The notes under the pieces were generated by a model. The model worked only from the letters and a program-made list of their open reading frames with translations, was not told where the DNA came from and did not search any database. From a candidate division FCPU426 bacterium (GTDB taxonomy: Bacteria; Oederibacteriota; Muellerivitia; Muellerivitales; Muellerivitaceae): 64,000 nucleotides of DNA. The DNA lies in assembly GCA_963719085.1 (NCBI GenBank), contig CAVRAL010000001.1, positions 320,001 through 384,000 of the forward strand, given 5' to 3'. Both the position numbers and the translations under genes were made by a program. How positions within the stretch are numbered: the stretch's first letter is position 1; every line of letters starts with the position of its first letter. Below, one piece after another: positions 15,394 through 62,839 of the stretch.

Positions 15394-15567
15394 TTGAGCA
15401 ATGATGCCCCGGGACCCCATTGAAGGAGTCAAGGAGGCCCGGGACAATACCGCTCTCTCTTGACTCCTTTATGGAAGAGCGGCGCGGACGCAGATAAACG
15501 CCGATTTATGATAAACATGGGATTAGGCAGCTTTTTATCGGCGTTCATCCGCATTTATCATTGTTAA
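15394..15567. repeat. palindrome family B, left arm interrupted
   Basis: GCAATGAT[insert]GGACGCAGATAAACGCCGAT ... ATCGGCGTTCATCCGCATTTATCATTGT. Confidence 0.85.
15406..15485 (+). mobile_element. two-hairpin CGGGACA mini-element, copy 2 (subtype II)
   Basis: GCCCCGGG...CCCGGGACAAT-CCGCTCT...AGAGCGGCGC. Confidence 0.85.
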
Positions 15568-23805: not shown

Positions 23806-26800
23806 ATGAAACCTAAAAAATCCGCCGCTTCCGTTCCCGCGCCTCCCTCCTTGGAGGCCTTTCTCCAGCCATTCCTCGAGAACAGCCCCATCATTTTTTG
23901 GTTCATGAACCCGGAAGGCATCGTCGAGTTTTCCTTTGGCCGGGGTTTGGAATCGCTGGGGGTGACGCCCCAGGAGCGGGTGGGAAAATCCGTTTTCGAT
24001 ATTTATCGGGACCATCCGAAGGTTTTGGAGTGCCTGCGCCGCGCGATCCAAGGGGAATCCTTCTCGGAGGTTGTTCCGGTCGGGGATATTTTTTTCGAGA
24101 CGAAATTCATCCCGCGGTTGGACGGCCAAGGCCGGTTGACCGGTTCCATCGGGATCGCCACCGATGTCACGAGCCGTAAAAAAAACGAGGAGTTGATGGA
24201 CCGAAGGGAACAGCATTACCGGTCCTTGATCGAGAACTCCCATGACGTCATTTATATCCTCGACGACAAGGGACACCGCACCTACGAAAGCCCCTCGGTG
24301 GAGAAGGTGCTGGGCTACAAGCCCGGCGAGCGCGCCGGCAGAAGCGTGTATGACTATATCCATTCCGAAGACCACTCGAACGTGCGCGAGATCTTCGACA
24401 AGCTGGCCCACGTGCCGGGCGTCACTTACCGGGTGGAACTGCGCGCCCGGCACAAGGCCGGCGGATGGCGGAATGTGGAGGTGGCCATCACCAATTTGTT
24501 GGAAGACCCGGCGGTGCGGGGCTGGGTCGTTAATTTTTGGGACATCACGGAGCTCAAACGCGCCGGCGAGATCGTGGAAAAGCAGGAGCAGTATTACCGC
24601 GCCTTGACCGAAAATACCCACGAACTGGTCGTGCTTTTGGACCGGGAAGCGGTCATCCGATTCGCCACGCCGTCGATCCAGAAAATTCTGGGCCACCCCC
24701 TCTCGGACCGGATCGGAAAAAACTTTTTGGAATGGGTCCATCCGGAGGATATTTACCGCACCAAGGAAGTTTTCACCCAAACCTATCTCTCGACGGGGCG
24801 GACCATGACGGTGGATTTCCGCGCCAGGCACCGGGACGGCTCCTGGCGTTTTTTGGAAGCGGCGGTCACCAACCTTTTCAACCACCCGGCGGTGGAAGGA
24901 ATGATTTTAAACGCGCGGGATGTCACCGAACGCAAAAAAACCGACGAGGCTTTGCGGGACCGGGAACGCTACTTCAGGGCCCTGACCGAAAACGCCTATG
25001 ACGTGGTTTATGTCATCGACCGGGACGGACGGCGGTTTTACGAAAGTCCTTCCACCGAGCGGGTGCTGGGATTTCGGCCCGGCGACCGGGATCCCGAAAG
25101 CACCTTTTCCTATCTTCATCCGGAGGACCAGGCGGCGGGGAAGGCGGCTTTCCAAAAATCCCTTCAAAATCCCGGGGTGCCGGTGGCGGCGGAACTGCGC
25201 ACCCGGCATAAGGACGGCCGGTGGATCCATATGGAAGTGGTGGCCACCAACCTGCTTGACGTGGCCGCGGTCCGGGGCGTGGTGGTCAATTGCCGTGAGA
25301 TCACCGAGCGCAAAAAAGCCGAGGAGGACCTGCGCCATTCGGAGGAGCGGTTCCGCAACCTGATTGAGAGCTCCCACGACGTGGTGAATCTTTTTGACGG
25401 GACCGGAAAAATTCAATATGTCAGCCCGTCGGTGAAAAGGGTTTTGGGTTATGAGACCGCCGAATTGATCGGCCAAACCAGCTGGGAATGGATCCATCCG
25501 GAGGACCTGGCCAAAGCGAGTCCGGTTTTTGAGCAGGTCATGCGGGCCCCGGGGCAGTCCCGGTCCATTGAAATCCGCTTGAGGCATAAGGATGGAACCC
25601 ACAAAAATATCGACCTCACCATGACCAACCTTTTGGACAATCCCGCGGTGCGGGGTATTGTGGCCAATTACCGCGACGTGACCGAGCGGGTCCGCACCGA
25701 GGAAAAATTCAGGAACTTGATCGAGAACTCCCGGGATGTGATCGCCGTGGTGGACATGCAAGGGCGCTCCTTTTATGTCAGCCCCTCGATCCGCAAGGTG
25801 ATGGGTTACGAGCCGGAGGATTGGATGGACCGCAATTTCCTGGAGCTCATCCATCCGGACGAGCGGGAAGCCGCCCGGCAGGGATTTGAACAGCTCATGA
25901 CCAGCCCCGGCGGCTCCATTTCGGCCCAAGTCCGGGCCCTGCATAAAAACGGCTCCTGGCGGCTGGTGGACGTGACCTGCACCAACCTTTTGCAGGACCC
26001 GACGGTGCAGGGGATTATTTTCAATTACCGGGACATCACTGAAAAGTATATGGCGGAAGAAGCGGTGAAGGTTTCCGAAGAAAGATTCCGGAACCTGATC
26101 GAGAATTCCAATGACGTGATCTCGCTCGTCAACGCCCAGGGGACGAACCTCTATATCAGCCCCTCCATCCGGAAGGTCATGGGCTATGATCCGGACGAAA
26201 GGATGGGCCGGAACTTTTTTGAGATCATCCACCCGGAGGACTTGGGATGGATTAAGAATGAATATGAGGATTTTTTGAGGCAGAAGAACAGCGTGCGCAC
26301 GATCCAGGCGCGGGCCCGGCACCGGGACGGGACCTGGCGCACCGTGGAAGTGACGGCCACCAATCTGCTCGACCACCCCTCCGTGGCCGGCGTTATTTTC
26401 AATTACCGGGACGTCACCGAGCGCCGCAAGGCCGAAGCGGCCTTGAAAAAGTCCGAGGAGAATTTTAGGTCGCTCATTGAGAAATCGCCCGACGCCATGA
26501 TCGTCCATACCGAGGAGAAGATTTATTACGTCAATGAGGCCTTATTGAAGCTTTTGGGTTATGACCTGCCCGACGATCTGGTGGGCAAGTCGCCCTTGAG
26601 CATGCTCCATCCGGACGACCATGAGAGGGTTTTGATACGGATCCGAAGGCTCAAACCCTTTGAGGGATTCAACCCGCCCCAAGAAAAAAGGTTTTTGCGC
26701 AAGGACGGGGGTTATATCGAGGTGGAAACGGTGAGCTTCTCCATTCTTTTTGAGGGGTCGCCCATGGTGGTGGCCATCGCCCGCGACTTGACCGACCGCA

Positions 26801-27513
26801 AGACCACCGAACAGGCCCTTCTGAAGTACGAGCGCTTGGGCGCCATCGGGGAAATGGCCGCCGGCATGGCCCATGAGATCCGCAATCCCTTATCCGGCGT
26901 CCAATTGTCGGCGGAATACCTGCTGAAAAAATTCGGTCAAACCCCCGAGGCGGCGGACCAGATTAAAAATATATTGGAACAGGCCGGGCGTTTGCGCCAG
27001 CTGGTGGACGATACTTTGGATTATTCCAAGGATAAGTCGGTGAAGGAATTTCAATTGATGGACGTGATGACCTTGTTCCGCACTTCCTTGCGGCTGGCCC
27101 AGGTGCAGTACGGGCCCAATCACAGCCGTTTTAAGGTCCAATGGAAATTGGATTGGAACCTTTATTTTTTGAGGGTGAACCCTTACCGTGTCCAGCAGGT
27201 GCTGGTGAACCTCATCCTCAACGCCTTCCAGGCCATGGGGTCGGAGGGCGTCTTGACCTTGGGATGCGAAAAAGTGGGGGCGATGTTCCGGCTCTCGGTG
27301 GCGGATGACGGGCCGGGAATGCAGGACAAGGAGCTGGCCCGGATGTTCGAGCCTTTTTTCACGACGAAGAGCAGCGGGTCGGGCCTGGGGTTGTCGGTCA
27401 GCCAAAAGATCGCCGAATCCCACGGGGGAAAAATAAGCGTGGAACGCCTCCAACCCCGGGGAACGGTTTTTATCCTGGAACTACCCGCCGCCGCGGGAAA
27501 TGAGAATTCATGA
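23806..27513 (+). CDS. cytoplasmic sensor histidine kinase with 8 tandem PAS/PAC domains
   Basis: eight [F/Y]R.L.EN..D-type PAS starts; AHEIRNPL H-box; N, D(DDGPG), F(PFFTTK) and G boxes. Confidence 0.95.
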   Translation: MKPKKSAASVPAPPSLEAFLQPFLENSPIIFWFMNPEGIVEFSFGRGLESLGVTPQERVGKSVFDIYRDHPKVLECLRRAIQGESFSEVVPVGDIFFETKFIPRLDGQGRLTGSIGIATDVTSRKKNEELMDRREQHYRSLIENSHDVIYILDDKGHRTYESPSVEKVLGYKPGERAGRSVYDYIHSEDHSNVREIFDKLAHVPGVTYRVELRARHKAGGWRNVEVAITNLLEDPAVRGWVVNFWDITELKRAGEIVEKQEQYYRALTENTHELVVLLDREAVIRFATPSIQKILGHPLSDRIGKNFLEWVHPEDIYRTKEVFTQTYLSTGRTMTVDFRARHRDGSWRFLEAAVTNLFNHPAVEGMILNARDVTERKKTDEALRDRERYFRALTENAYDVVYVIDRDGRRFYESPSTERVLGFRPGDRDPESTFSYLHPEDQAAGKAAFQKSLQNPGVPVAAELRTRHKDGRWIHMEVVATNLLDVAAVRGVVVNCREITERKKAEEDLRHSEERFRNLIESSHDVVNLFDGTGKIQYVSPSVKRVLGYETAELIGQTSWEWIHPEDLAKASPVFEQVMRAPGQSRSIEIRLRHKDGTHKNIDLTMTNLLDNPAVRGIVANYRDVTERVRTEEKFRNLIENSRDVIAVVDMQGRSFYVSPSIRKVMGYEPEDWMDRNFLELIHPDEREAARQGFEQLMTSPGGSISAQVRALHKNGSWRLVDVTCTNLLQDPTVQGIIFNYRDITEKYMAEEAVKVSEERFRNLIENSNDVISLVNAQGTNLYISPSIRKVMGYDPDERMGRNFFEIIHPEDLGWIKNEYEDFLRQKNSVRTIQARARHRDGTWRTVEVTATNLLDHPSVAGVIFNYRDVTERRKAEAALKKSEENFRSLIEKSPDAMIVHTEEKIYYVNEALLKLLGYDLPDDLVGKSPLSMLHPDDHERVLIRIRRLKPFEGFNPPQEKRFLRKDGGYIEVETVSFSILFEGSPMVVAIARDLTDRKTTEQALLKYERLGAIGEMAAGMAHEIRNPLSGVQLSAEYLLKKFGQTPEAADQIKNILEQAGRLRQLVDDTLDYSKDKSVKEFQLMDVMTLFRTSLRLAQVQYGPNHSRFKVQWKLDWNLYFLRVNPYRVQQVLVNLILNAFQAMGSEGVLTLGCEKVGAMFRLSVADDGPGMQDKELARMFEPFFTTKSSGSGLGLSVSQKIAESHGGKISVERLQPRGTVFILELPAAAGNENS

Positions 27514-28862
27514 AAATTCTTGTCATCGACGACGAAAAGTCCATGCATGTGGCCTTGATTCCTTTTTTAAAGGAATTAGGCCATGAGGCCGAATCGGCCT
27601 TCACGGGCACCGAGGGGCGGCAGAAGGCGGCGGCCTTCAAGCCCGATTTGATCCTTTTGGACCTGTACCTGCCGGATGTCACGGGTTTGGAACTTTTAAG
27701 CGGGTTTCAAATGGAGTCGCCCGCGACCGGGGTCATCATTATGACGGCGGCCGCCGCCGTGAAGACCGCGGTGGAAGCCATGAAAAAGGGCGCGGAGGAT
27801 TATCTTCAAAAGCCGCTGAGCCTGGACGACATGGAGCTGGTGCTGGCCCGCTTTTTCAAGACCCAAAATTTGCGCCAGGACGTGGCGGCGCTCAAAGGCA
27901 GGCTGCGGGATGAGCTGGCGAGGGAATTCCTGATTCTTCCCGATCCGGCCATGCAGCCGCTTTACGCCCAAATTGAGCGGGTGGCCGAACAGGACAAGGT
28001 CACGGCTTTGGTCCTGGGTGAGACGGGGACGGGGAAGGAGCATGTGGCCAAGCTCATCCACACCCTGTCGGCGCGGTCGGCCAAGCCTTTCGTGGAACTT
28101 CACTGCGGGGCCCTGCCCGAGACCTTGATGGAATCCGAGCTTTTCGGCTATGAGGCGGGGGCCTTCACGGACGCCCGAAAACAAAAGCAGGGGCTTTTCG
28201 AGGCGGCCCAGGGAGGGAGCCTTTTTTTGGATGAGGTGGGCGAGATGCCTTTGGCCACCCAAACCAAATTATTGAAGGTCCTGGAAGACCGGAAACTGCG
28301 GCGCTTGGGCGGCATTAAGGAAATTGTTTTGGACGTGCGGGTGATCGCGGCCACCCACCGGGACCTGGAAGTGGAAGTGAAAGAAGGCCGTTTCCGGGCC
28401 GACCTTTATTACCGGCTCAACGTGATTCCTTTGAAACTTCCGCCCTTGCGCCAAAGGCCCGAGGATATCGCGGCCTTGGCGGTGTTTTTTTGGGAAGAAG
28501 CGGCCCGGGATTTCGGGCGCAAAATGGAGCCGCTTCCGGAGCCCGTCATGGAAAAATTAATGGCTTACCCCTGGCCGGGCAACGTGCGGGAACTTAAAAA
28601 CGCGGTCAACCGCATGGTGATCGGATCCCAGGGCGGCCGGGTGGGCTGGGGCGACCTGCCGGATGAGATCGCGGCCTTTGAGCCTTCGCTCCCGGAAAAC
28701 GCGGGCGAGGAATCGTTGGTTTTGGAAAAGGGCTCCAGCGAAAAAGATATGGTGGAAAAAGCCCTTCAACAGTCCCGGTGGAATAAATCCAAGGCCGCGG
28801 AGCTTTTGGGGGTCACCCGCAAGACGCTCTTCAACAAGATGAAAAAATACGACATCCACTAA
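27510..28862 (+). CDS. NtrC-family sigma-54-dependent response regulator
   Basis: receiver domain, GETGTGKE, ESELFG.EAGAFTDA, WPGNVREL, Fis-type HTH. Confidence 0.95.
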   Translation: MKILVIDDEKSMHVALIPFLKELGHEAESAFTGTEGRQKAAAFKPDLILLDLYLPDVTGLELLSGFQMESPATGVIIMTAAAAVKTAVEAMKKGAEDYLQKPLSLDDMELVLARFFKTQNLRQDVAALKGRLRDELAREFLILPDPAMQPLYAQIERVAEQDKVTALVLGETGTGKEHVAKLIHTLSARSAKPFVELHCGALPETLMESELFGYEAGAFTDARKQKQGLFEAAQGGSLFLDEVGEMPLATQTKLLKVLEDRKLRRLGGIKEIVLDVRVIAATHRDLEVEVKEGRFRADLYYRLNVIPLKLPPLRQRPEDIAALAVFFWEEAARDFGRKMEPLPEPVMEKLMAYPWPGNVRELKNAVNRMVIGSQGGRVGWGDLPDEIAAFEPSLPENAGEESLVLEKGSSEKDMVEKALQQSRWNKSKAAELLGVTRKTLFNKMKKYDIH

Positions 28863-34839: not shown

Positions 34840-34860
34840 GCTGGTCTCCACCAAAACCAA

Positions 34861-35024
34861 CTGCTCACGCAAAGACGCTAAGACGCCAAGGAAACATTGA
34901 GAATTAAATGATTTTTTGAGAGTCTATTCTTGTTGTTGGCGGCTTAGCCGTTTTGAAAACCGTCTCTTTCATTCTGCTTAAAAGATTTGCCTTCCTTTGC
35001 GTCTTAGCGTCTTTGTGTGAGCGG
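34861..35024. repeat. palindrome family A variant (empty)
   Basis: GCTCACGCAAAGACGCTAAGACGCCAAGG ... CCTTTGCGTCTTAGCGTCTTTGTGTGAGC. Confidence 0.9.
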
Positions 35025-35123
35025 TTTGTGTTGGTTAAGTTTTTCGAGTAGCCGGGTTGCTTTTCCCCTTCGGTTTTCTTAAGTTCACAAGGATTTAACA
35101 CTCTTCATTCCCTCAGGAGCCTT

Positions 35124-37513: not shown

Positions 37514-37541
37514 TCGATATGCTAAAGAAAAACTGAATTTT

Positions 37542-37626
37542 ACAATGATGAACGCAGATGAAAACAGATTTTCAAAAAATTAAGGCTTATCTATTTTCAT
37601 CAGCGTCCATCTGCGTTCATCATTGT
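37542..37626. repeat. palindrome family B (empty reference copy)
   Basis: ACAATGATGAACGCAGATG ... CATCTGCGTTCATCATTGT perfect 19-bp arms. Confidence 0.9.
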
Positions 37627-37679
37627 TCCAATAGTTGTTATTCTTGTTGCGGATTCTGATTTTTGTTAAAGGATTTTTT

Positions 37680-38140: not shown

Positions 38141-38237
38141 AAGTTTTGAATTTTGAGTTTTAAGTTTTGGCGTGTTTTTGTGCCATGGGCTCAAAAACGT
38201 CTTTAACTTAAAACCTAAAACTTAGAACTTAAAACTT
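38141..38237. repeat. palindrome of tandem heptamers (RAGTTTT)n / (AAACTTA)n
   Basis: four heptamers, an inner hairpin, then about five complementary heptamers. Confidence 0.85.
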
Positions 38238-41615: not shown

Positions 41616-41635
41616 AGATAATTATCGAAAACCTA

Positions 41636-41736
41636 TTTCACCACCAAGGCACCAAGACGCCAAGGACGGCTAAACTGAGGGTATTTAACCCAAATTATTT
41701 TTGCTTTCTTGGTGTCTTGGTGCCTTGGTGGTAAAA
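41636..41736. repeat. palindrome family A variant (empty)
   Basis: ACCACCAAGGCACCAAGACGCCAAG ... CTTGGTGTCTTGGTGCCTTGGTGGT. Confidence 0.9.
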
Positions 41737-41774
41737 CATTCTGTGACTTTACCCATAATAAAAAGGTTTGAACC

Positions 41775-43103: not shown

Positions 43104-43280
43104 GCCGGGTCTTATTTTCCCGTCGCTGGCTCCGGAGCCCCGGCACACCCAGGGCGCGGTCTTCGACTCCTGGCCGAAGATCTGGGGGGGGTTAGAAGTG
43201 TTTTGAAAATGAAGGTTTGTGTTATTATACGGCTCCTCAAAACCGGCCCTTTCGGGGCCTTTTTTATTTGTCTCGCCTTC

Positions 43281-43309
43281 CTTGGCGCCTTGGCGTCTTG
43301 GCGGTGAAA
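43281..43309. repeat. solo right arm of family A
   Basis: CTTGGCGCCTTGGCGTCTTGGCGGTGAAA with no left arm upstream. Confidence 0.75.
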
Positions 43310-45777: not shown

Positions 45778-45818
45778 GTTCGGGAAGCGAAGTCCGGAAA
45801 AGCAGGATTTTAAAACCG

Positions 45819-45860
45819 AAAACTCCCTTTTTCCCGGTTGGGAAGAGGGAGTTTTTTTTT
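45819..45860 (+). terminator. intrinsic terminator
   Basis: AAAACTCCCTTTTTCCC/GGGAAGAGGGAGTTTT hairpin plus T-run. Confidence 0.8.
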
Positions 45861-45880
45861 AATGTTTTTAATTGAAACAA

Positions 45881-46062
45881 TTTTACCGCCAAGGCGCCCC
45901 GCTGGCCCATTGGGGGCCAAACGAGCGGGACAGTGCCGCCCCCATTAATTTTTTTATGGAGGGGCGGCCGCCAAGTTCGCCAAGAACAGCGAAAGACGAA
46001 GGCTTTTAAAACATATTTGGATTTAGCCTTTCTTGGCGAACTTGGCGCCTTGGCGGTGAAAA
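45881..46062. repeat. palindrome family A, left arm interrupted
   Basis: removing the insert gives ACCGCCAAGGCGCCAAGTTCGCCAAGAA, the exact reverse complement of the right arm. Confidence 0.92.
45896..45969 (+). mobile_element. two-hairpin CGGGACA mini-element, copy 7 (subtype I)
   Basis: GCCCCGCT-GGCCC...GGGCC-AGCGGGACAGT-GCCGCCCC...GGGGCGGCC. Confidence 0.88.
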
Positions 46063-46101
46063 AGTTTTTTTTGAGATTTAAATCTATCAGGAGTTTTTGA
46101 A

Positions 46102-47091
46102 TTGACCCAAGCCGTCAGCCACCGCATCACTTTGGATGACCATCAGGAATGCGTCCGATTATTCGGGGAAAAAGACCATACCCTGAAATTGATCCGTGAT
46201 TCTTTCGCCGTGACCCTCATCGCCCGCGGGAACGAACTGTTGTTGTCCGGGGAACCGCTGGAAGTTTCCCACGCGTCCCAGGTGATTGAGCGCTTGCGGC
46301 TTCATTTAAAGAAAAACACCGAAGGCTACCTTTCGGGGGCGAAAGTCAGCCAGACCATCGCCGAAGCCAAGGGCCAAACGCTGGAAGAACCGGAGCCGGC
46401 GGCGGCGCGGGAAACCATCCTCATCTCGTCTCGTAAAAAGCCCATCGCGGCGCGCACGGACAACCAGCAAAAATACGTGGACGCCATCCGAAGCCACGAC
46501 ATCGTCTTTGGCGTGGGGCCGGCGGGAACGGGAAAAACTTATTTGGCGATGGCCATGGCGGTCTCCGCCCTGCGGGACGGGCTGGTGGAGCGCTTGATCC
46601 TGACCCGCCCGGCGGTGGAGGCGGGGGAAAAGCTCGGATTTTTGCCGGGGGACCTGCAGGATAAGGTGGATCCCTATTTGCGTCCGCTTTATGACGCGCT
46701 TTATGACATGGTGGATTACGAAAAGTTACAGCGCCTGTTCCAACAGCGCGTGGTGGAAGTGGCGCCGCTGGCCTATATGCGGGGACGGACCCTGTCGAAC
46801 GCTTTTATTATTTTGGACGAGGCCCAGAACACCAGCCCCGAGCAAATGAAGATGTTTTTAACCCGCACCGGCGCCGGATCCAAAGTGGTGGTGACCGGCG
46901 ACGTGACCCAGGTGGACCTGCCCAGCGGCAAGGCCTCGGGCCTGGTCCACGCGCAGGAAGTCTTGAAGGGGCTGCCGGGCATCGGCGTGATTCATTTCCA
47001 ACCGCAGGACGTGGTGCGGCACAAATTGGTCCAGACCATTGTGCGGGCTTACGACAGCCATGAAGCCGCCAAAGCCGAAAAACCGGTTTGA
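46102..47091 (+). CDS. phoH: PhoH family ATPase (YbeZ-like)
   Basis: GPAGTGKT, RPAVEAGEKLGFLPGD, YMRGRT, DEAQN. Confidence 0.95.
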   Translation: MTQAVSHRITLDDHQECVRLFGEKDHTLKLIRDSFAVTLIARGNELLLSGEPLEVSHASQVIERLRLHLKKNTEGYLSGAKVSQTIAEAKGQTLEEPEPAAARETILISSRKKPIAARTDNQQKYVDAIRSHDIVFGVGPAGTGKTYLAMAMAVSALRDGLVERLILTRPAVEAGEKLGFLPGDLQDKVDPYLRPLYDALYDMVDYEKLQRLFQQRVVEVAPLAYMRGRTLSNAFIILDEAQNTSPEQMKMFLTRTGAGSKVVVTGDVTQVDLPSGKASGLVHAQEVLKGLPGIGVIHFQPQDVVRHKLVQTIVRAYDSHEAAKAEKPV

Positions 47092-47093
47092 CG

Positions 47094-47546
47094 ATGAAAC
47101 TATTGATCCGTGACGGACATGCCCGCAATCCGATTTCCCCAGTCTTGGCCCGCCGTTGGGCGGCGAAGGTCGTCCGCGCCGTCAAGGGCGCTTCCTTCGA
47201 GCGCCAATGCGAGCTTTCGGTGGTCTTTACCGGGGACGCCGAGGTGCGGAAGATGAACCGGCTTTACCGGAAAAAAGATAAGACCACCGATGTGCTGGCT
47301 TTTCCCTTGCGGGAAGGAAAATTATTGCGCGCCGGGCTTCCGGGTTCGGGGGCTTTGGGGGATGTGATGATCAGCGTGCCTCAAACCCTGCGCCAGGCGA
47401 AAGCCGCGGGCAAGAAGCCCCGGGAAGAAATGGCGCTGCTGCTGACCCACGGAATTTTGCATCTTTTGGGATATGACCACGTGACCCTTCGGCAGGAAAA
47501 GCGCATGTTTGGCTTGCAGAACCGTCTTTTAAAGAAATTGGTCTAA
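47094..47546 (+). CDS. ybeY: rRNA maturation endoribonuclease YbeY
   Basis: TDVLAFP, HGILHLLGYDH. Confidence 0.95.
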   Translation: MKLLIRDGHARNPISPVLARRWAAKVVRAVKGASFERQCELSVVFTGDAEVRKMNRLYRKKDKTTDVLAFPLREGKLLRAGLPGSGALGDVMISVPQTLRQAKAAGKKPREEMALLLTHGILHLLGYDHVTLRQEKRMFGLQNRLLKKLV

Positions 47547-48950: not shown

Positions 48951-49087
48951 ACCACAGAGTACACAGAGTTACACGGAGTAAGGCGGCAGGCTGCATCAAT
49001 TGAAGTTTGAACAAGTTTTTAACCAAGTGATTTATCTGTCATAAAAGGACTTTGTTTTACTCTGTGTAACTCTGCGTACTCTGCGGT
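48951..49087. repeat. palindrome family C
   Basis: ACCACAGAGTACACAGAGTTACACGGAGTAA ... TTACTCTGTGTAACTCTGCGTACTCTGCGGT. Confidence 0.9.
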
Positions 49088-49105: not shown

Positions 49106-49204
49106 TTGAACTACTTAGACTGTCACAATCCCTCGCTAACGCGTGGGGCCCGTTTCACGGATAAATGTTTTGCAGTTATCTGCTGTTTTGGAAGGGTTTC
49201 GTGA
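49106..49204 (+). other. 32-codon leader ORF duplicating the PHP gene start; stop overlaps the PHP GTG
   Basis: MNYLDCHN... versus MNLLDCHNH; GAGG RBS; GTGA overlap. Confidence 0.6.
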
Positions 49205-53328: not shown

Positions 53329-53482
53329 GGGAGTTCATTCCGGTTGCTGAATGTGGGACAACCGCTTGATTTTAGCAGGAGGACGGCGCGGCCGCTTGGA
53401 ATTCGAGTCCCCGGCGACCTTCGAGGACAAAACTTTTGGATTTATATACCGGAGTTCCTTTTTCCTGATTTTGCCGTGTTTT

Positions 53483-53636
53483 GTCGTTGCGAGGGACGAA
53501 CTTTGTGGCGAAGCGACCCCAGTTCATGGATTGTGTTCACTTTGCGGCGGACGGCCATCTCCAAAGGCATATTAAATACCCACTAACTGAGGTTGCTTCG
53601 TCGCTAACACCCATGAAAGACGCTCCCCGCAATGCC
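53483..53636. repeat. degenerate REP-like palindrome (GTCATTGCGAG...CGAAGCAA type), family D
   Basis: GTCGTTGCGAGG...GCGAAGCGACC / GGTTGCTTCGTC...CCCGCAATGCC. Confidence 0.65.
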
Positions 53637-53746
53637 GTCGAACCCCAGCTCTGCTTTCGCCTCGGGTTAAAACTTTTCAGGAAAAAAGGCCTGTTCATTC
53701 AGCCTCCGCCGGGTAAAATCGGGGCACCTTCTGGAGAAGGAAGCTC

Positions 53747-54601
53747 ATGAATCTTGATTTATCCGTTCGATTCAAAAAAGAATTCTTATTGGGCGACCTG
53801 CTCTACCATTCGAGCCAGGCCATGATGGAACTATTGTCCCTGCCCACCGGCCCGGACTTGAGGGTGGAAATCGACGAGGACGACAAAAAGATCCAGTTGG
53901 ACGGCGAGTTTTTGTGCGGGACCCAGTGTCCGATCCTTTTTATCGGCTTCAAAAACCAAACCCCCAAAATCAAGATGATCATTTATGAGATCGATCCCAA
54001 CCAGGATTTTCTTCCCGAGGAAGAAAAGGGCTTGCGGGCGGGCATCCTGGCCGGCGACGGGGAAGACCAATGGGGCGATCCGCTCCAAATCGCCCTGGCG
54101 GCCAGCGTGGCCATCGCCTTGGCCCGGATTGAGGGATGTAAAATCCGCGACTACAAATCCAGCCTCGGCGCCGGTGATTTTCAAACCGCCGGGGAACTCA
54201 TCCACTCGCTCCGGGTTTTCTCGGAATTTAAGGACATCCAAAAAGCCGCCCAGGTTCTTTTTGAAAAAACGCCGCTGGCCTTGATGATGGGCCCAAGGTT
54301 GAAGTCGATCCAATTGGAAGAAGAGATGGACAAGCTCATGATCGAGATGTTGGGGCTGGTGAAGATCCAAAAACGCATCGATATCGCGGTCTTCACCCGG
54401 TTTTACCGGCTGTTGGATGAGATGATTGAGGCCACGGATAATGACCCCGGCCCCCGCCGAAATTTGATTGGTTTCCTTTGCCTGATCTACGAGTATCTGC
54501 TCGAGGAACTGCGTTACGCCAAGGATCCGGAAGAGTTTCAGGCCGAGATCCAGCGGCTGAAAGAAAAAATTTCCAAGCTTGGTTTTCAAATGCCGGCTTG
54601 A
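53747..54601 (+). CDS. hypothetical protein
   Basis: 284-aa ORF with host-like codon pattern; no motif recognised. Confidence 0.7.
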   Translation: MNLDLSVRFKKEFLLGDLLYHSSQAMMELLSLPTGPDLRVEIDEDDKKIQLDGEFLCGTQCPILFIGFKNQTPKIKMIIYEIDPNQDFLPEEEKGLRAGILAGDGEDQWGDPLQIALAASVAIALARIEGCKIRDYKSSLGAGDFQTAGELIHSLRVFSEFKDIQKAAQVLFEKTPLALMMGPRLKSIQLEEEMDKLMIEMLGLVKIQKRIDIAVFTRFYRLLDEMIEATDNDPGPRRNLIGFLCLIYEYLLEELRYAKDPEEFQAEIQRLKEKISKLGFQMPA

Positions 54602-54607
54602 GGGCGG

Positions 54608-54997
54608 ATGCGAGTGAAATTAAGCGATTTGTTCACGAAAAATATCTACGTGACTTCCCCCCGCGACCCGGAAGCCTTTTTCCACCCCCGCCGTTACGCG
54701 AAATCCAAGGAAGAGGTGGGAAAGGCCGTCTATGAGGTGGTGGCCCGATTGAAGGGTTGGACGGTCCAGGAATACCGGGAAAACCAGGGCCGGGTCCACG
54801 TTTTACGCCAGGGCTTTTTACCCCTGTGGATGGAAGACGTTAATATCTATATCGTCCAGGGTTTGGACGGGACCACCAAGCTGGAAGCCACCTCCCAATC
54901 CAGGGCGGGCCGGGGCGACTGGGGACAGAACCGAAGAAACCTCAAAAAATTTCTCGCTCAAATGGATTCTTGGATGGCGGCTTCCACGCAAGTTTAA
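54608..54997 (+). CDS. DUF1499-like protein
   Basis: SQSRAGRGDWGQNRRN motif. Confidence 0.7.
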   Translation: MRVKLSDLFTKNIYVTSPRDPEAFFHPRRYAKSKEEVGKAVYEVVARLKGWTVQEYRENQGRVHVLRQGFLPLWMEDVNIYIVQGLDGTTKLEATSQSRAGRGDWGQNRRNLKKFLAQMDSWMAASTQV

Positions 54998-55013
54998 GCG
55001 CGCCGGGTCGGTC

Positions 55014-55041
55014 TTGACAGAAGTCTTAAGACACGTATAAT
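55014..55041 (+). promoter_or_regulatory. sigma-70 promoter of the pyr operon
   Basis: TTGACA-16bp-TATAAT. Confidence 0.85.
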
Positions 55042-55049
55042 TCAATCAG

Positions 55050-55080
55050 CCTTTAAACGGGTCCTGTGAGACCCCTAAGG
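55050..55080 (+). promoter_or_regulatory. PyrR-binding loop
   Basis: CCTTTAA-CGGGTCCTGTGAGACCC-TAAGG resembles the UUUAA / ARUCCNGNGAGGYU consensus; lies upstream of pyrR. Confidence 0.85.
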
Positions 55081-55118
55081 AATAAAAGCATGGCGCTCGC
55101 TTGCCCGCGCACAATTGA

Positions 55119-55869
<751 letters not shown>

Positions 55870-55873
<4 letters not shown>

Positions 55874-56802
55874 ATTGGCGCTCCAAAGACCTGCTCACGC
55901 TTGAGGAACTCACTGCCGCCGAGATCCAAATGATTTTGGATACGGCTTCCTCGCTGAAAGAAGTCTCGACCCGTTCGGTAAAAAAAGTGCCGGCCTTGCG
56001 GGGCCGCACCGTGGTGCTTTTCTTCCAAGAGCCTTCCACCCGCACCCGGGTTTCCTTTGAACTGGCCGCCAAGCGCATGAGCGCCGACATCCTGAACGTC
56101 CAAACCGCTTCCTCGTCGCTAGTCAAGGGCGAGACCTTGATTGACACGGTCAAAACGCTGGAAGCCATGACCATCGACGCGATCGTGGTGCGGCATTCCT
56201 GCTCGGGCGTGCCCCAGATGCTGTCGAATGTCTTGAAAGCCTCCGTCATCAACGCGGGAGACGGTTCCCATGAGCACCCGACCCAAGGCTTGCTTGACCT
56301 TTTCACCATCCGCGAGCACAAAGGCAAAATCGAGGGCCTCACCGTCACCATCGTGGGCGACGTGGCCCACAGCCGGGTGGCCCGGTCCAATATCCACGGC
56401 CTTACCAAGCTCGGGGCCAGGGTCCGGGTTTGCGCGCCGCCCACGCTCATTCCGATGGGAATTGAAAAAATGGGAGTCGAAGTTTTTCACGACCTGGACA
56501 AGGCCCTGGACGGGACCGACGTGGTTTATGTGCTGAGGCTGCAGCTCGAGCGGCAAAAGAAAAATCTGTTTCCCACCATCCGCGAATATTCCATGCTTTA
56601 CGGCATGACCAACGAGCGGCTGAAACGGGCCAAAAAAGGCGCCATCGTGATGCATCCCGGGCCCATGAACCGCGGGGTGGAAATATCCTCCGGCGTGGCC
56701 GACGGGCCGGCATCGGTGATCGACGAACAGGTCACCAACGGGGTCGCGGTCCGAATGGCGGTTTTGTACCTGCTCCAAGGCGAAAAAAATGAAACCAATT
56801 AA
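55870..56802 (+). CDS. pyrB: aspartate carbamoyltransferase catalytic subunit
   Basis: [24 protein letters not shown]. Confidence 0.97.
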
Positions 56803-56941
56803 CCGCCAAGACGCCAAGTCCGCCAAGAGAGGCGTTACAGATAAATCGATTTGGGACACCGAAAATATTTCTTCTCTAAAATCTTTAATCCGGACTTGGC
56901 GCGCTTGGCGTCTTGGCGGTGAAAATGGAGCGCGTTTATGA
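56789..56941 (+). other. 50-codon mini-ORF spanning the palindrome; stop overlaps the pyrC ATG
   Basis: hand translation [13 protein letters not shown]...WRAWRLGGENGARL*. Confidence 0.6.
56802..56920. repeat. palindrome family A (empty reference copy)
   Basis: ACCGCCAAGACGCCAAGTCCGCCAAG ... CTTGGCGCGCTTGGCGTCTTGGCGGT. Confidence 0.92.
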
Positions 56942-58221
56942 AGTCAATCCTCATCCAGGGCGGCCACGTCATCGATCCGGCGAATCAACTCGACGGCGAA
57001 GCGGATGTTTTCCTCAAGGATGGCAAGGTTGAGAAGGTCGGCAAAAATCTCAAGGTCAAAGCCGATCAAGTGATCGACGCCAAGGGCAAGATCGTCACGC
57101 CGGGCCTGGTCGACATCCATGTGCACTTGCGGGAGCCCGGGTTTGAGTATAAAGAAACCATCGCCACCGGTACCCACGCCGCTGTCGCGGGCGGGGTCAC
57201 CTCGGTGGCCTGCATGCCCAACACCAACCCGCCCATCGACGACCAGACCATCGTTTACTTCATTAAGGCGAAGGCCGAAAAAGAAGGTTACTGCCACGTG
57301 TTTCCGGTGGGTTGTATCTCCAAGCGCCGGGAAGGCGCCGAGATGGCGGAGATCGGCGAGCTTAAGCGGGCGGGCGCGGTGGCCTTGTCCGACGACGGCG
57401 CGCCGGTGATGAACGCGGAGCTGATGCGCCGGGTGATGGAATACGCCAAGACCCAAGACCTGGTCGTGATCGAGCATTGCGAGGACATGCATCTTTCCAA
57501 TAACGGGGTCATGAACGAAGGCGCGCCCTCAACCGTCCTGGGGCTTCGGGGAATCCCGGCGGCGTCCGAGACGGTCATGGTGGCCCGCAACATCCTGCTG
57601 GCGGAGATGACGGGAGCCAAGTTCCATGTGGCCCATCTTTCCACGGCCGGGTCGGTGGAGTTGGTGCGGCAAGCCAAGAAAAAGGGCCTGGCGGTCACCG
57701 CCGAAACCGCGCCCCATTACTGGAGCCTGTCGGACAAATCGATCAAAAACTACAACGCCAACTTCAAGATGAACCCGCCGCTACGCGGCGAGGAAGACGT
57801 GGCAGCCATCCGCAAAGGAATCAAGGAAGGCGTCATTGACTGCATCGCCACCGACCACGCCCCGCACGCGGGCACGGAAAAACAATGCGAGTTTGACCAA
57901 GCCGCCTTCGGAATCGTGGGGCTGGAAACCCTTTTTGCCCTGACCTACAGCCACTTGGTGGAACCCGGGGTCGTGAGCTTGTCCCGGGCCATTGAAATGC
58001 TGACGGTGGGACCTTCCAAAATCGTAAGCATCCCCAAAGGCACCTTGTCGGAGGGCGCGGACGCGGATGTGGCGATCTTCGATATCAAAAATGAGAAAAA
58101 AGTAGACTCCACCAAATTCAAAAGCAAAGGCAAGAACAGTCCGTTTAATGGCTGGGCTCTTAAAGGTTGGGCGGAAGTCACGATTGTGAGTGGAATAGTG
58201 AAGTACGAACGAGAAGATTAA
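56938..58221 (+). CDS. pyrC: dihydroorotase (type I)
   Basis: DIHVHLREPG, MPNTNP, KMNPPLR, ATDHAPH. Confidence 0.97.
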   Translation: MKSILIQGGHVIDPANQLDGEADVFLKDGKVEKVGKNLKVKADQVIDAKGKIVTPGLVDIHVHLREPGFEYKETIATGTHAAVAGGVTSVACMPNTNPPIDDQTIVYFIKAKAEKEGYCHVFPVGCISKRREGAEMAEIGELKRAGAVALSDDGAPVMNAELMRRVMEYAKTQDLVVIEHCEDMHLSNNGVMNEGAPSTVLGLRGIPAASETVMVARNILLAEMTGAKFHVAHLSTAGSVELVRQAKKKGLAVTAETAPHYWSLSDKSIKNYNANFKMNPPLRGEEDVAAIRKGIKEGVIDCIATDHAPHAGTEKQCEFDQAAFGIVGLETLFALTYSHLVEPGVVSLSRAIEMLTVGPSKIVSIPKGTLSEGADADVAIFDIKNEKKVDSTKFKSKGKNSPFNGWALKGWAEVTIVSGIVKYERED

Positions 58222-58235
58222 GCCAACAAAAACGG

Positions 58236-58335
58236 CTCACGCAAAGACGCTAAGATGCCAAGGACGGCAAAGTCTGATTTTGAGAAAAACTTAATGCTTT
58301 TGTAGTTCTTGGCGGACTTGGTGTCTTGGCGGTGA
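58236..58335. repeat. palindrome family A, chimeric arms
   Basis: CTCACGCAAAGACGCTAAGATGCCAAG ... CTTGGCGGACTTGGTGTCTTGGCGGTGA. Confidence 0.85.
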
Positions 58336-58356
58336 AAAAAATCTAAGGGGTTTTGG

Positions 58357-59547
58357 GTGGCTTCTAAAATGAAAAAAGCGGTTTTGGCGCTCGAAGATGG
58401 TACTTGGTTTGAGGGATTGTCTTTTGGCGCGGAAGGAAAGTCCTTCGGCGAAGTCGTCTTCAACACGTCCATGACGGGCTATCAGGAAATTTTGACCGAT
58501 CCTTCTTATAAGGGCCAGATGGTCACCATGACCTATCCCATGATCGGCAATTACGGCGTGAACCACGTGGATATCGAGTCCCGCAAGCCTTTCGTCGAAG
58601 GCTTCATCGTGAAGGAATATTGTAAACATCCTTCCAACTACCGCATGACCTCGAGTCTGGCCGATTACCTGAAAAAGAACAATATCATCGGCATCGAGGG
58701 CATCGACACCCGGGCCTTGACCGCTCATTTGCGGGAATTCGGCTCGAAGAAGGGCGTCCTCTCGACGACTGAACTGGATCCCAAAAAGTTGGTCAAACAA
58801 GCCAAGGACAGTCCGGGGCTGGTTGGCCGGGATTTGGTAAAAGAAGTCACTTGCGACCGGCCCTACCACTGGACGGAACTTCCTTACGATCTCAATGAGT
58901 TAGGAGTTGGGGGTTCAGAGTTGGGAGTTGAAAAGCAATTAAACCTTCAGCAGGAACACAAGAGCAACGGCAAAGCTAGAATCAAAATCGCCGCTCTCGA
59001 TTGCGGGATCAAATACAACATCCTTCGTCAATTAACCGCACAGGGATTTGATGTGACGGTTTTCCCGGCCACCACGCCGGTGGAGGCCTTGATGGACGCC
59101 CATGTGAAAGGCGTTTTTCTTTCTAATGGTCCCGGCGACCCTGAGGGCGTACCTTACGTGGTCGACACGGTCCGCCAGCTGATCCACCGCAACATGCCGA
59201 TTTTCGGCATCTGCTTGGGGCATCAAATTTTGGGGTTGGCCATGGGCGGCAAGACCTACAAGATGAAGTTCGGCCATCGGGGCGGAAATCAGCCGGTACT
59301 GAACCTCTTTACCAAGAAGGTCGAGATCACCAGCCAAAACCACGGCTTTTGCGTGGAAACGGAAAGCCTGAATCCGGATGAAGTGGAGTCCACTCACTTG
59401 AACCTTTCGGACAACACCAGCGAGGGATTGGCCTTGAAGCACAAGCCGGTCTATAGCGTGCAATATCATCCGGAAGCCTCGCCCGGACCGCATGACGCGG
59501 ATTATTTATTCAAAATGTTCAGAGAACTGGTGGAAAAAAATGCCTAA
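58357..59547 (+). CDS. carA: carbamoyl-phosphate synthase small subunit
   Basis: [38 protein letters not shown]. Confidence 0.97.
58897..58931 (+). repeat. five tandem heptamers (GAGTTRG-like) inside carA
   Basis: GAGTTAG GAGTTGG GGGTTCA GAGTTGG GAGTTGA, encoding [12 protein letters not shown]. Confidence 0.75.
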
Positions 59548-62500
59548 ACGAACTGACATCAAAAAAATTCTTGTCGTCGGGGCCGGGCCCATCATCATCG
59601 GCCAGGCCTGTGAATTTGACTACTCCGGAACCCAAGGTTGCAAAGCGCTCAAAGAAGAGGGCTTTGAGGTCATCTTGATCAACTCCAACCCGGCTACGAT
59701 CATGACGGACCCGGAATTCGCCCACCGCACCTATGTGGAACCCATCACGCCTGAAGTCGTCCGTAAGATCATTGAAAGGGAACGGCCCGATGCCATGCTT
59801 CCGACCTTGGGAGGGCAGACGGCACTCAATATCGCGGTGGCCCTCGCCGAAAACGGCACCTTGAACGAATTCAAAGTAGAACTCATTGGCGCCAATTTGG
59901 CCGCCATTAAAAAGGCCGAAGACCGCCAACTTTTTAAAGAAGCCATGCTCAAGATCGGGCTCGATCTTCCGAAATCACTGACCGTCCACACGCTTGAAGA
60001 GGGAATTGGCTTCGCCGAAGGCAATGGTTTCCCGGTCATTATCCGTCCCGCCTTCACGCTGGGCGGAACCGGCGGCGGTATCGCTTACAACCGCCAAGAG
60101 TTTGAGGAAATTCTCTCGAAGGGAATCGACCTTTCGCCCATCCACCAATGCTTGGTCGAGGAATCGGCCTTGGGTTGGAAAGAATATGAGATGGAAGTGA
60201 TGCGGGACCTGAAAGACAACGTGGTCATCATCTGCTCCATCGAGAACATGGACCCCATGGGGATTCACACCGGTGACTCGGTCACCGTGGCCCCGGCGCA
60301 AACCCTGACGGACAAAGAATATCAACGCATGCGCGACGCCTCCATCGCCTGCATCCGGGAGATCGGCGTGGATACGGGTGGATCGAACATCCAGTTCGGC
60401 GTGGACCCGAAGACAGGCCGCATGGTGGTGATCGAGATGAATCCCCGGGTCTCCCGGTCTTCCGCCTTGGCCTCCAAAGCGACCGGATTTCCCATCGCTA
60501 AGATCGCGGCCAAACTGGCCGTGGGTTACACGTTGGATGAAATCTTTAACGACATCACCCGATATACCAAGGCGGCTTTCGAGCCTTCCATCGATTATGT
60601 GGTCACCAAAATCCCGCGCTTCACCTTTGAAAAGTTTCCCGATGCCGAGGATATCCTGAATACCTCCATGAAGAGCGTGGGGGAAACCATGGCGATCGGC
60701 CGCACGTTTAAAGAGAGCTACCAAAAGGCGCTTCGGTCCATGGAAACCGGCAGTACGGGTTATGGGGCCGAGGGCCGTGAATTCAAGGACGGCCGCTGGC
60801 AAAAGACCGGTGTCCGCAAACCGGGGAAATTGCCGGTAGACCTTTTGGAAGCTCAACTGCGTAAGCCGACCTCCATCCGCCACTTTTTTATCCGCCAGGC
60901 TTTTTGGCAGGGTTATGACGTGGATAAGATTTACAAATTGTGCGCCATCGACCCTTGGTTCTTGAATGAGCTGAAAGAAATCGTGGACATGGAAAAGGCG
61001 CTGGAAAAATCCACGGCCAAATCGGGAAAACTCACGACTAAACTGCCGGAAGATCTTTTGCGCCAAGCCAAGGCCATGGGGTTCTCCGACGTCCAATTGG
61101 CGTTCCTGTGTAAGGCGAAGGAAACCGCGGTCCGGAGCTATCGGAAACTCAAAGGCGTCAAACCGGTCTATAAGATGGTGGATACCTGCGCCGGCGAATT
61201 TGAGGCTTTCACGCCTTACCTTTATTCCACTTATGAATTAGGTAAATCGTCCTTCGCCGGAAAAGATACCGAAGCCCCTCCGACTAAAGAGCAAAAGATC
61301 ATGATCTTAGGCGGCGGCCCCAACCGCATCGGCCAGGGAATTGAGTTCGACTATTGCTGCGTGCACGGCGCCTTCGCGCTTCGAGCCGACGGATATGAAG
61401 TCATTATGGTCAACAACAACCCGGAAACGGTCTCGACCGACTACGACACGTCCAACCGGCTTTATTTTGAGCCTTTGACTTTTGAGGATGTGATGAACAT
61501 TTTGGATCGGGAAAAACCCAAAGGCGTTATCGTCCAATTCGGCGGCCAGACGCCTCTAAAACTGGCGGTGCCGCTCAAACAAGCGGGAGCCCCCATCATC
61601 GGCACTTCGCCGGAATCCATTGATGTGGCGGAAGACCGCAAGCTTTTCGGGGCTTTGCTCAAGCGCCTCAAGATCCGTCAGCCGGACAACGGCATCGCCA
61701 TGAACGTGAAGCAGGCCAAACCCGTGGCCCGCAAGGTCGGTTATCCCGTTGTGGTGCGTCCTTCTTATGTATTGGGCGGGCGGGCCATGGAAATCGTATA
61801 TGACGAAGAATCCTTGGACGAGTTTGTCCAAAAGGCGGCGGAAGCGGCTCCTGACAAGCCCATCTTGATCGACCACTTTTTGGAAGACGCCTTGGAAGTG
61901 GACGTGGATTGCGTGTCTGACGGCAAAGAAGTATTGGTGGCGGGCATCATGGAACATATCGAGGAAGCGGGCATCCACTCGGGCGACTCCGCCTGCGTGA
62001 TTCCGCCCTATACCTTGCGCGAGGACCAGATCGCGGCGATCAAAAAGCACAGCAAAGAAATGGCCTTGGCTTTGAAGGTGAAGGGGTTGATGAACGTGCA
62101 GTACGCCATCAAGAACGACATGGTTTATGTCTTGGAAGTGAATCCCCGGGCTTCCCGCACCGTGCCATTTGTCTCGAAAGCCACGGGAACTTCCTGGGCC
62201 AAGGTGGCGGCCCGCCTGATGGCGGGGAAGAGCATCGCTCTGCTCAAGATAAAAGAAGTTTCCTATCTCAAACACGTGGCCGTGAAAGAATCCGTGTTTC
62301 CCTTCAACCGCTTCCCGGGCGTGGATACGGTTTTGGGCCCTGAAATGAAATCTACCGGCGAAGTGATGGGCATCGACACCGATTTCGGCATGGCTTTTTC
62401 CAAAAGCCAGATGGGCGCGAACTCGTCTTTGCCCATGAAGGGAACGGTGTTTGTGTCGGTGAAGAATAAGGACAAGCGTTCGGTGATCTTCATCGCCAAG

Positions 62501-62839
62501 CGGCTTTCGGACATGGGTTTAAAACTGGTGGCCACCCAAGGCACGGCGCAGGCTTTGATTTCCAACGGAATGGAAGTGACCGTGGTGCGCAAGGTGCACG
62601 AGGGAAGACCCAATGTGGTCGACCTCATTAAGAACGGTGAAATCCAACTGATCTTTAACACGCCCGCGGGCAAGGGGCCCCGGTCGGATGATTTCCAAAT
62701 CCGCCGCACGGCGGTGGTTTACAACGTGCCCTGCATTACCACGCTCTCGGCTTGCGCCGCCGCCGTCAACGGCATTGAGGCCATGAAAAAGCATGAGATC
62801 CGGGTGAAGTCGCTCCAGGAATACCACAACCTCGCCTAA
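59540..62839 (+). CDS. carB: carbamoyl-phosphate synthase large subunit
   Basis: [18 protein letters not shown], two ATP-grasp halves, MGS domain. Confidence 0.98.

Follow-up and report, generated by a model that had tools for sequence, protein, structure and literature searches.

How can an operon tolerate a stable hairpin between two genes that formerly overlapped? In prokaryotes, no gene spacing is commoner than an overlap of stop and start codons. A gap of about 20 nt is enough to abolish nearly all termination-reinitiation coupling (PMC10666635). Because overlaps are so common and coupling collapses over so short a distance, how operons survive insertions at gene junctions is a real question. 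It is raised by the pyr operon (pyrR-pyrB-pyrC-carA-carB, assigned with Pfam) of a candidate division FCPU426 bacterium, located in a stretch of 64,000 nt, hereafter the window (GenBank assembly GCA_963719085.1, contig CAVRAL010000001.1, positions 320,001 to 384,000). Here, a palindromic repeat lies between the co-directional genes pyrB and pyrC and is crossed by an open reading frame (ORF) of 50 codons. The parts of the junction are as follows.

55870..56802, forward strand: pyrB, aspartate carbamoyltransferase (Pfam OTCace_N and OTCace; tblastn against relatives; tail comparison)
56789..56941, forward strand: bridging ORF, the candidate relay, 50 codons, ATG start (ORF list and translation)
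56799..56827, forward strand: left palindrome arm, built from three roughly 8-nt units in tandem with the consensus CGCCAAGA (repeat search; period 8 in Tandem Repeats Finder, TRF)
56800..56802, forward strand: pyrB stop codon TAA, within the left terminus of the element (sequence; tail comparison)
56828..56894, forward strand: A+T-rich spacer between the arms, 67 nt, 36% G+C
56895..56923, forward strand: right arm of the palindrome, 29 nt, its end being GGCGGTGAA (repeat search; TRF)
56927..56930, forward strand: GGAG, Shine-Dalgarno-like, 7 nt 5' of the pyrC ATG, not part of the main stem (sequence; fold)
56938..58221, forward strand: pyrC, dihydroorotase (Pfam Amidohydro_1 and DHOase)

The ORF list and the translation confirmed what a reading of the sequence alone (the sequence-only reading) had described, namely, a 50-codon frame that crosses the palindrome and stops on the pyrC ATG. 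The ORF opens at ATG 56789, which precedes the pyrB stop by 11 nt and is in frame +1 relative to the pyrB tail. It closes with a TGA (56939-56941) that forms ATGA with the overlapping pyrC ATG (56938-56940); the pyrC start aligns with residue 1 of the PyrC proteins of relatives. The final codons of pyrB (E-K-N-E-T-N and TAA) run into the element, with the TAA falling in the sequence TTAACC where other copies have TTTCACC, so that the pyrB stop is supplied by the element itself. The gap between pyrB and pyrC is 135 nt. The two 29-nt arms, each consisting of approximately three tandem 8-nt units, are 90% complementary, and the RNA fold of the element has a predicted energy of -65.2 kcal/mol (z = -4.9), with none of 200 shuffles being as stable.

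A PyrC search yielded 13 close relatives (L001-L013; 75-93% identity), all of them uncultured metagenome-assembled genomes. Five (L002, L003, L004, L005 and L010) are free of any element at the pyrB-pyrC junction, and each of these 5 has pyrB ending and pyrC starting within one ATGA, a 4-nt overlap of the two genes. Thus, as the sequence-only reading had proposed, the insertion of the element split 2 genes that formerly overlapped by 4 nt. An element of the same xAAG type as in the window occupies this junction in L008 and L011, whereas palindromes with other arm units are found in 6 relatives (TTAGGAGT in L001, L006, L009, L012 and L013; TTAGGAA in L007). The pyrR-pyrB and pyrC-carA junctions display a similar mosaic of element types across the relatives; where pyrR-pyrB is element-free, the genes overlap as ATGA or GTGA in 4 of 5 cases, and L010 has a 24-nt gap. 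In the PyrC tree, the window groups with L001 (98 in the Shimodaira-Hasegawa-like approximate likelihood ratio test, SH-aLRT), the rest of the tree being poorly resolved. Given that these two group together yet carry different elements at the three junctions, the turnover of the elements is fast. Elsewhere in the window, exact 4-nt overlaps were seen in four ORF pairs (end/start 5570/5567, 27513/27510, 47091/47088 and 53750/53747, within the regions 4674-8008, 23806-28862, 46102-47546 and 53481-54601, respectively), and such spacing is therefore usual in this genome.

One reading of this arrangement is a ribosome relay. A palindromic repeat with arms of 8-nt units would have inserted at the 4-nt pyrB/pyrC overlap, pushing the genes 135 nt apart and placing a hairpin of about -65 kcal/mol between them. 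Ribosomes would then initiate at ATG 56789, whether de novo or on finishing pyrB 11 nt downstream, translate through the element, melting the hairpin, and stop on the pyrC ATG, where the same ribosomes, or fresh 30S subunits at the GGAG, would re-initiate. Under this scenario, the peptide would have no function of its own, and what is kept would be an open frame with the right ends. Because gaps of about 20 nt almost abolish reinitiation, a bridge would be needed for coupling to last across 135 nt, and bridging would restore what the gap would otherwise abolish. We put the probability that the ORF is a bridge of the kind found in mycobacterial interspersed repetitive units (MIRUs), which relays ribosomes to pyrC, at slightly below an even chance; the sequences show the ORF, the element, the ancestral overlap and the excess of open sense frames, whereas that the ORF is translated and aids pyrC expression is inferred. 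The strongest competitor, quite possible if somewhat less probable, holds that the ORF is a by-product of an element that is selfish or acts solely as a hairpin of RNA or DNA (in mRNA stability or RNase processing), with pyrC using its own Shine-Dalgarno sequence. The stop-free arms would then be happenstance, and the open spacer frame would be due to chance or inherited from a master copy that was already open.

What speaks for the relay is found at the level of the family rather than of this one locus. The arms of the type present here, subfamily A, hold no stop codon in any frame on either strand, as read from the sequence, so only the spacer decides whether a frame is open. The sense frame TTT CAC CGC CAA GAC of subfamily A is stop-free in 6 of 8 copies, where spacer shuffles lead one to expect 1.19 (P = 9e-5, or 4e-4 when L011 is left out), or in 6 of 9 if the short-armed, closed copy at L001 126-265 is added; the antisense mirror frame is open in none of the 8. 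When copies with homologous spacers are collapsed, 4 of 6 remain open (P = 0.011). Thus, the family shows an excess of open sense frames that is moderately beyond chance, and this excess speaks against a mere by-product. Moreover, complete bridging ORFs, which begin on or close to the stop of the upstream gene and end with a TGA on the start of the downstream gene, are present in 6 of the 8 xAAG-type insertions in pyr operons: pyrR-pyrB and pyrB-pyrC in the window, pyrR-pyrB in L001, pyrR-pyrB and pyrB-pyrC in L008, and pyrB-pyrC in L011 (the pyrB-pyrC copies of L008 and L011 within this count being one insertion). Start codons at the left boundary recur in the copies of L001, L008 and L011 and in the copy at 22783 of the window. 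Compared with L008, the window differs in length by 12 nt at pyrB-pyrC and, from the coordinates, by 9 nt at pyrR-pyrB, with the frame kept in both cases.

The neighbouring junctions of the window supply a second bridge and a counter-example.

55191-55745, forward strand: pyrR, at the head of the operon (Pfam)
55742..55873, forward strand: sister bridging ORF at pyrR-pyrB, 43 codons (ORF list)
55755..55854, forward strand: palindromic element of the related subfamily B at pyrR-pyrB (repeat search; TRF)
58234..58337, forward strand: hybrid B/A element at pyrC-carA, closed in all three sense frames, a counter-example to the relay

The ATG of the sister ORF overlaps the pyrR TGA and its own TGA overlaps the pyrB ATG at 55870, giving ATGA at both ends, and the same design is therefore present at pyrR-pyrB, as had been noted. 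To call the two junctions independent cases was too strong, given that the frame is a shared property of the subfamily and that the window pyrB-pyrC copy and the pyrR-pyrB copy of L001 (6658-6784) are near-identical, spacer included. The spacer 56828..56894 is indeed homologous solely to that of the L001 copy; likewise, the pyrB-pyrC copies of L008 and L011 have homologous spacers.

The most telling single case for the relay comes from L007, where the arm units differ altogether. A 52-codon bridging ORF (L007:1108-1266) extends from GTG 1108 to a TAA located 8 nt inside pyrC. The arm units TTAGGAA/TTCCTAA rotate TAG and TAA through all three frames, and the one deviating pair of units, TTCGGAA/CTCCGAA, eliminates precisely those two stops, a TAG and a TAA, that would fall in the frame in question, according to our frame arithmetic. 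Among 14 junction elements that are not of the xAAG type, 1 of the 42 sense frames is open, and that one is the L007 ORF. A paired variant that deletes the sole in-frame stops and the recurrent start codons at the left boundary speak against a by-product.

Several results weigh against the relay, and most of them also favour the by-product explanation. Taken alone, the open frame at pyrB-pyrC is not above chance: it persists in 17% of spacer shuffles, and across the 8 elements of the window, open frames are about as frequent on the gene strand (6 of 24) as on the antisense strand (5 of 24). On the by-product explanation, the ATGA at the end of the ORF would be no more than a start codon followed by A. 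Two xAAG-type insertions, pyrC-carA in the window and pyrR-pyrB in L013, are closed and have no bridge, and 5 of the 8 element-bearing relatives (L001, L006, L009, L012 and L013) carry at this very junction elements with stops in every sense frame, so that a bridge is not required. With GGAG 7 nt upstream and outside the main stem, independent initiation of pyrC is plausible. The retention of the frame through divergence is only mildly unlikely, with chance values of 0.22 (window/L001) and 0.30 (L008/L011), and the copies are not independent, the same two pairs sharing spacers. There is no coding signature in the differences by codon position (16/15/10 and 6/7/7), and synonymous changes are far outnumbered by non-synonymous ones between paralogous (1 versus 22) and orthologous copies (3 versus 11). 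Such non-conservation of the peptide fits a sequence-independent bridge and equally fits a lack of function. Furthermore, sense RNA folds were not more stable than antisense ones (sense better in 12 of 21, p = 0.22), giving no sign of selection on the sense transcript. The hairpin itself is strong, and compensatory changes are present in 5 of 24 consensus pairs among six aligned subfamily A copies; other elements that resemble MITEs (transposable elements of miniature size with inverted repeats) work via RNase III or RNase E, as reviewed in PMC10969869. Taken together, the relay idea finds moderate support.

A third possibility, that the ORF codes for a functional small protein, is very improbable. 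In a search against 5.8 billion protein clusters, the product had one relative, P0002 in the near-length class, a predicted 50-aa protein with 96% identity in one other public record, and the longer-length class of the same search contained no match to the peptide. A second occurrence of the protein is what this explanation would have in its favour; set against it are the lack of any Pfam match for the product, the single relative, the mostly non-synonymous changes and the fact that the arms dictate most of the sequence.

The sequence-only reading had further claimed that the ORF opens with a copy of the pyrC start, which would make the insertion one with a target-site duplication and ATG 56789 the old pyrC start; the junction implied for element-free relatives is then ...GAAAAAA ATGAAACCAATC... 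as the start of pyrC. Indeed, ATG AAA CCA ATT (56789-56800) matches ATG AAG TCA ATC (56938-56949) at 9 of 12 positions. The same score came up for 2.4% of the mismatched pairings used as controls and for 2 of the 22 true ones, and the resemblance is within chance. Across 22 elements, the left flank showed no excess of copies of the downstream start over controls (Mann-Whitney p = 0.52). ATG 56789 lies in tail codons of pyrB, 9-13 nt upstream of the ancestral pyrC ATG: the tail reads GAA AAA AAT GAA ACC AAT TAA in the window versus GAA AAC AAG GAA GGG GTA AAC CCA TGA in element-free relatives, where the pyrC ATG is located 20 nt past a conserved GGCGAA, as opposed to only 7 nt for 56789. L007 has the same kind of tail (GAA AAA AGT GAA AGC AAT TAG), and in its +1 frame, GTG 1108 opens GTG AAA GCA ATT (MKAI), homologous to 56789. 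Because L007 shares the tail while its pyrC begins with MSKSIL, the tail at 56789 was not copied from pyrC; L011 shares the tail as well. In the window and in L007, a 3-nt gap removes the ATG of the ancestral position, and the start used lies 9 nt upstream.

The element-free relatives thus bear out the expected overlap of the pyrC start with pyrB (5 of 5), but the start in question aligns with 56938 and not with 56789. The idea that the upstream ATG is the old pyrC start fails for the window and holds for L008 and L011, in which alignment puts the bridging start at the ancestral pyrC ATG (AAC A ATG GTT versus AAC CC ATG A). What else could favour a duplicated start are imperfect direct repeats over the start region at some junctions (GCCGaATGAA/GCCGtATGAA at pyrR-pyrB; TTTGAACcAC/TTTGAACtAC at 48951) and the existence of a true gene-start duplication, with a short ORF ending in GTGA, at 49106..49204. 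Among 24 elements, direct repeats in the flanks scored 6.21 versus 5.85 in mismatched-flank controls (p = 0.079, not a significant enrichment), with scores of at least 7 in 7 of 24 elements versus 18% of controls. The duplicated-start explanation is largely refuted at 56789, where we consider it improbable, and the claim of a pyrC-start copy is not supported.

The duplication just mentioned is an observation in its own right: 3' of an ACAGAGT-type palindrome (48951-49087), a 32-codon ORF (49106-49204) opens with a copy of the start of the next gene (MNYLDCHN versus MNLLDCHNHTAEW) and ends with a TGA on the GTG of that gene (GTGA), which begins at 49201. In L001:289-335, the same start duplication occurs in tandem and ends in ATGA.

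The position of pyrR at the head of the operon raises a further option, namely, that the hairpin serves as an internal attenuator of the operon, dependent on PyrR in the style of Bacillus. Bacillus-type pyr operons have internal attenuators. A search of 54900-58500 with the PyrR-site model (RF00515) matched solely at 55046-55169 in the leader, where its 37.8 bits fall short of the gathering score of 54, and not on the element, and Rfam at its gathering and E-value thresholds placed no family on the elements; accordingly, the attenuator reading of the pyrB-pyrC element was rejected. None of the 10 terminator-like sites found lies at the pyrB-pyrC element, and the same element family is present between unrelated genes across the window, leaving this option barely credible. 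The leader (55014-55190) includes a promoter-like site at 55014-55041 (TTGACA-16-TATAAT, agreeing with the consensus at 12 of 12 positions); just upstream of pyrR, inspection by eye showed a G+C stem with a T run after it. An internal promoter-like site at 56853-56882 (9 of 12 positions) was discarded as not above background (2 found versus 1.3 expected). Terminator-like hairpins with T runs were also noticed directly upstream of a half element at 43281-43304 (43250-43304) and of a composite one at 45875-46067 (45814-45860).

The pyrB-pyrC element belongs to a dispersed family. The arm motif has 27 matches in the window versus 1.1 expected, a number reached by none of 100 shuffles, and a degenerate version has 30 versus 2.1 expected. 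The copies are the following.

8044-8227: paired copy
22783-22919: paired copy
34856-35029: paired copy
41634-41738: paired copy
43281-43304: half copy
45875-46067: paired copy
55755-55854: paired copy
56799-56923: paired copy
58234-58337: paired copy

The elements span 90-190 bp and have multi-unit arms, in which TRF detected only period-8 arrays, with about 3 copies per arm and lying inside the inverted arms. Subfamily A copies have common terminal inverted repeats, TTTCACCRCC...GGYGGTGAAA, and those of subfamily B end in GCTCACGC...GCGTGAGC. The spacers are unrelated among most copies, with detectable homology in three pairs only, and for this reason we dropped the claim that all copies have one orientation. 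By our reading of the coordinates, each of the 13 tandem-unit palindromes in the window is flanked by ORFs that run in the same direction. No transposase domain, including Y1, was found among the 53 ORFs scanned in the 64 kb (48 plus pyrR-carB).

Two copies are in frame with downstream genes. In the region 8005-8263, ATG 8005 shares ATGA with the upstream stop and opens a frame that passes through the 183-nt element 8044-8227 into a PCMT-domain ORF. On the minus strand, ATG 22923 reads through the element 22783-22919 into a lipoprotein signal peptide (FFLSGC). Homologues of this lipoprotein align only from the lipobox region onward. Because there is no in-frame start between the element and the core of the signal peptide, initiation must be inside or before the element.

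Other intergenic palindromes with arms of short tandem units were observed between co-directional genes at 15418-15474 (AGGAGTCA), 37538-37630 (GATGAACG-like), 38149-38222 (TTTTGAGT) and 48951-49087 (ACAGAGT). A second, small G+C-rich palindrome, CCCGCTGGCCC...GGGCCA...AGCGGGAC, is nested in the arms of two of the octamer elements (8125-8215 and 45893-45966), facing opposite ways in the two.

Among known repeats, the closest in the behaviour of the ORF are the MIRUs. MIRUs consist of 46-101 bp units repeated directly in tandem and lack a palindromic structure. As described in PMC12548453, they insert at start codons and contain an internal ORF coupled to the gene at -4 nt, which is thought to make the insertion tolerable. 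The pyrB-pyrC element similarly is a repeat between co-directional operon genes with an ORF in gene direction whose stop overlaps the downstream start by 4 nt. Compared by description rather than by sequence, it differs in being one long hairpin, whose arms consist of 8-nt units, in a non-mycobacterial, uncultured host. With respect to the start of the ORF, the window ATG is 11 nt 5' of the pyrB TAA and off the ancestral pyrC ATG, and that at pyrR-pyrB overlaps the pyrR stop. Because the structure that defines MIRUs is lacking, the element is not a member of that family.

In architecture, the likeness is to the short tandemly repeated repetitive (STRR) sequences of cyanobacteria, 7-bp tandem units that form hairpins between operon genes such as hupS-hupL, with suggested roles in transcript stability or translational coupling (PMC2670836). 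Both consist of short tandem units able to form a hairpin between operon genes, but the units here are 8 nt (7 in L007) and those of STRRs, which come from filamentous cyanobacteria, usually 7 bp; moreover, a bridging ORF and the start/stop geometry are not part of the STRR description given in that source. The element thus joins the architecture of STRRs to an ORF like that of MIRUs, in a lineage that is uncultured and unrelated, and is a member of neither family.

Bicistronic designs and upstream-ORF delivery resemble the junction in that the stop of a leader ORF overlaps the target start and ribosome helicase activity clears structure (PMC12548453); those are engineered or located in a 5' leader, whereas here, the arrangement is natural, lies between two genes and is part of a dispersed repeat. 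Rickettsia palindromic elements likewise are open-frame palindromes tolerated in translated regions (PMC10969869; compare 8044-8227 and 22783-22919), but they are in-frame intragenic fusions with a conserved peptide, as opposed to a separate ORF with a non-conserved one. Correia and ERIC elements are co-transcribed inverted repeats between genes that form RNA hairpins; their known effects proceed via cleavage by RNase III or RNase E and via promoters, and the same review makes no mention of translational coupling (PMC10969869). REP/BIME sequences are palindromes, about 35 bp long, of genomes that also encode a RAYT transposase. The window copies measure 90-190 bp and have multi-unit arms, and no Y1 transposase was found in the window.

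A lead on the origin of the elements comes from the pyrC-carA junctions of the relatives. In L001 (9226-9703) and L009 (1751-2169), arms of the TTAGGAGT type flank a gene for a four-helix-bundle protein of 114-116 aa (PF05635, TIGR02436), the sole cargo found among the elements of the relatives. In L007 (2546-2715), the same arms are present without an ORF, and about 25 nt of the 3' end of the PF05635 gene are kept. There are thus hints that PF05635-bearing and ORF-less elements may relate as autonomous and derived forms. Inverted arms of tandem units around such a gene recall the intervening sequences (IVSs) of 23S rRNA, whose protein is of this type; here, in contrast, the setting is an mRNA operon, the window has no rRNA match and its copies lack such a gene. 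Literature searches, from which subscription papers and bioRxiv supplements were outside the scope, gave no description of such elements for PF05635, TIGR02436 or the IVS protein, only irrelevant matches for the arm-unit strings, and no paper joining MITEs and translational coupling; because these searches came back empty, we call the element undescribed.

On a broader and unlikely interpretation, the tandem-unit hairpins would form an undescribed superfamily of mobile or self-renewing elements of operon junctions, one subfamily of which is translation-permissive and recouples its insertion site. The arm units would differ between and within genomes (CCAAGACG, CTAAGACG, TTAGGAGT, TTAGGAA, ACAGAGT and others), the full-length members would carry the 23S-rRNA-IVS-type (Avd-like) four-helix-bundle protein, and the target would be 4-nt gene overlaps. 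Arm types would be swapped in place, as the window and L007 suggest, which share a derived pyrB tail and ORF start but differ in their arms. The permissive subfamily would be marked by a left end that has a start codon, by arms free of stops and by a right end that resembles a Shine-Dalgarno sequence and keeps a constant distance of 13 nt to the host start. To our knowledge, MIRUs are the sole textbook answer to how operons survive such insertions. If the relay holds, a second, structurally unrelated repeat would have come to the MIRU solution, which would suggest that bridging ORFs are a general route of tolerance for selfish repeats in operons, and the elements would be natural parts for coupling cassettes. 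The link of the arm architecture to IVS-type four-helix-bundle genes provides a testable lead on a widespread protein family of unknown function.

Downstream of pyrC, carA starts at 58357 and carB extends up to 62839 (Pfam). The longest ORFs of carA (58357-59547) and carB (59492-62839) share 56 nt, and the genuine start of carB probably lies further downstream than that of its longest ORF.

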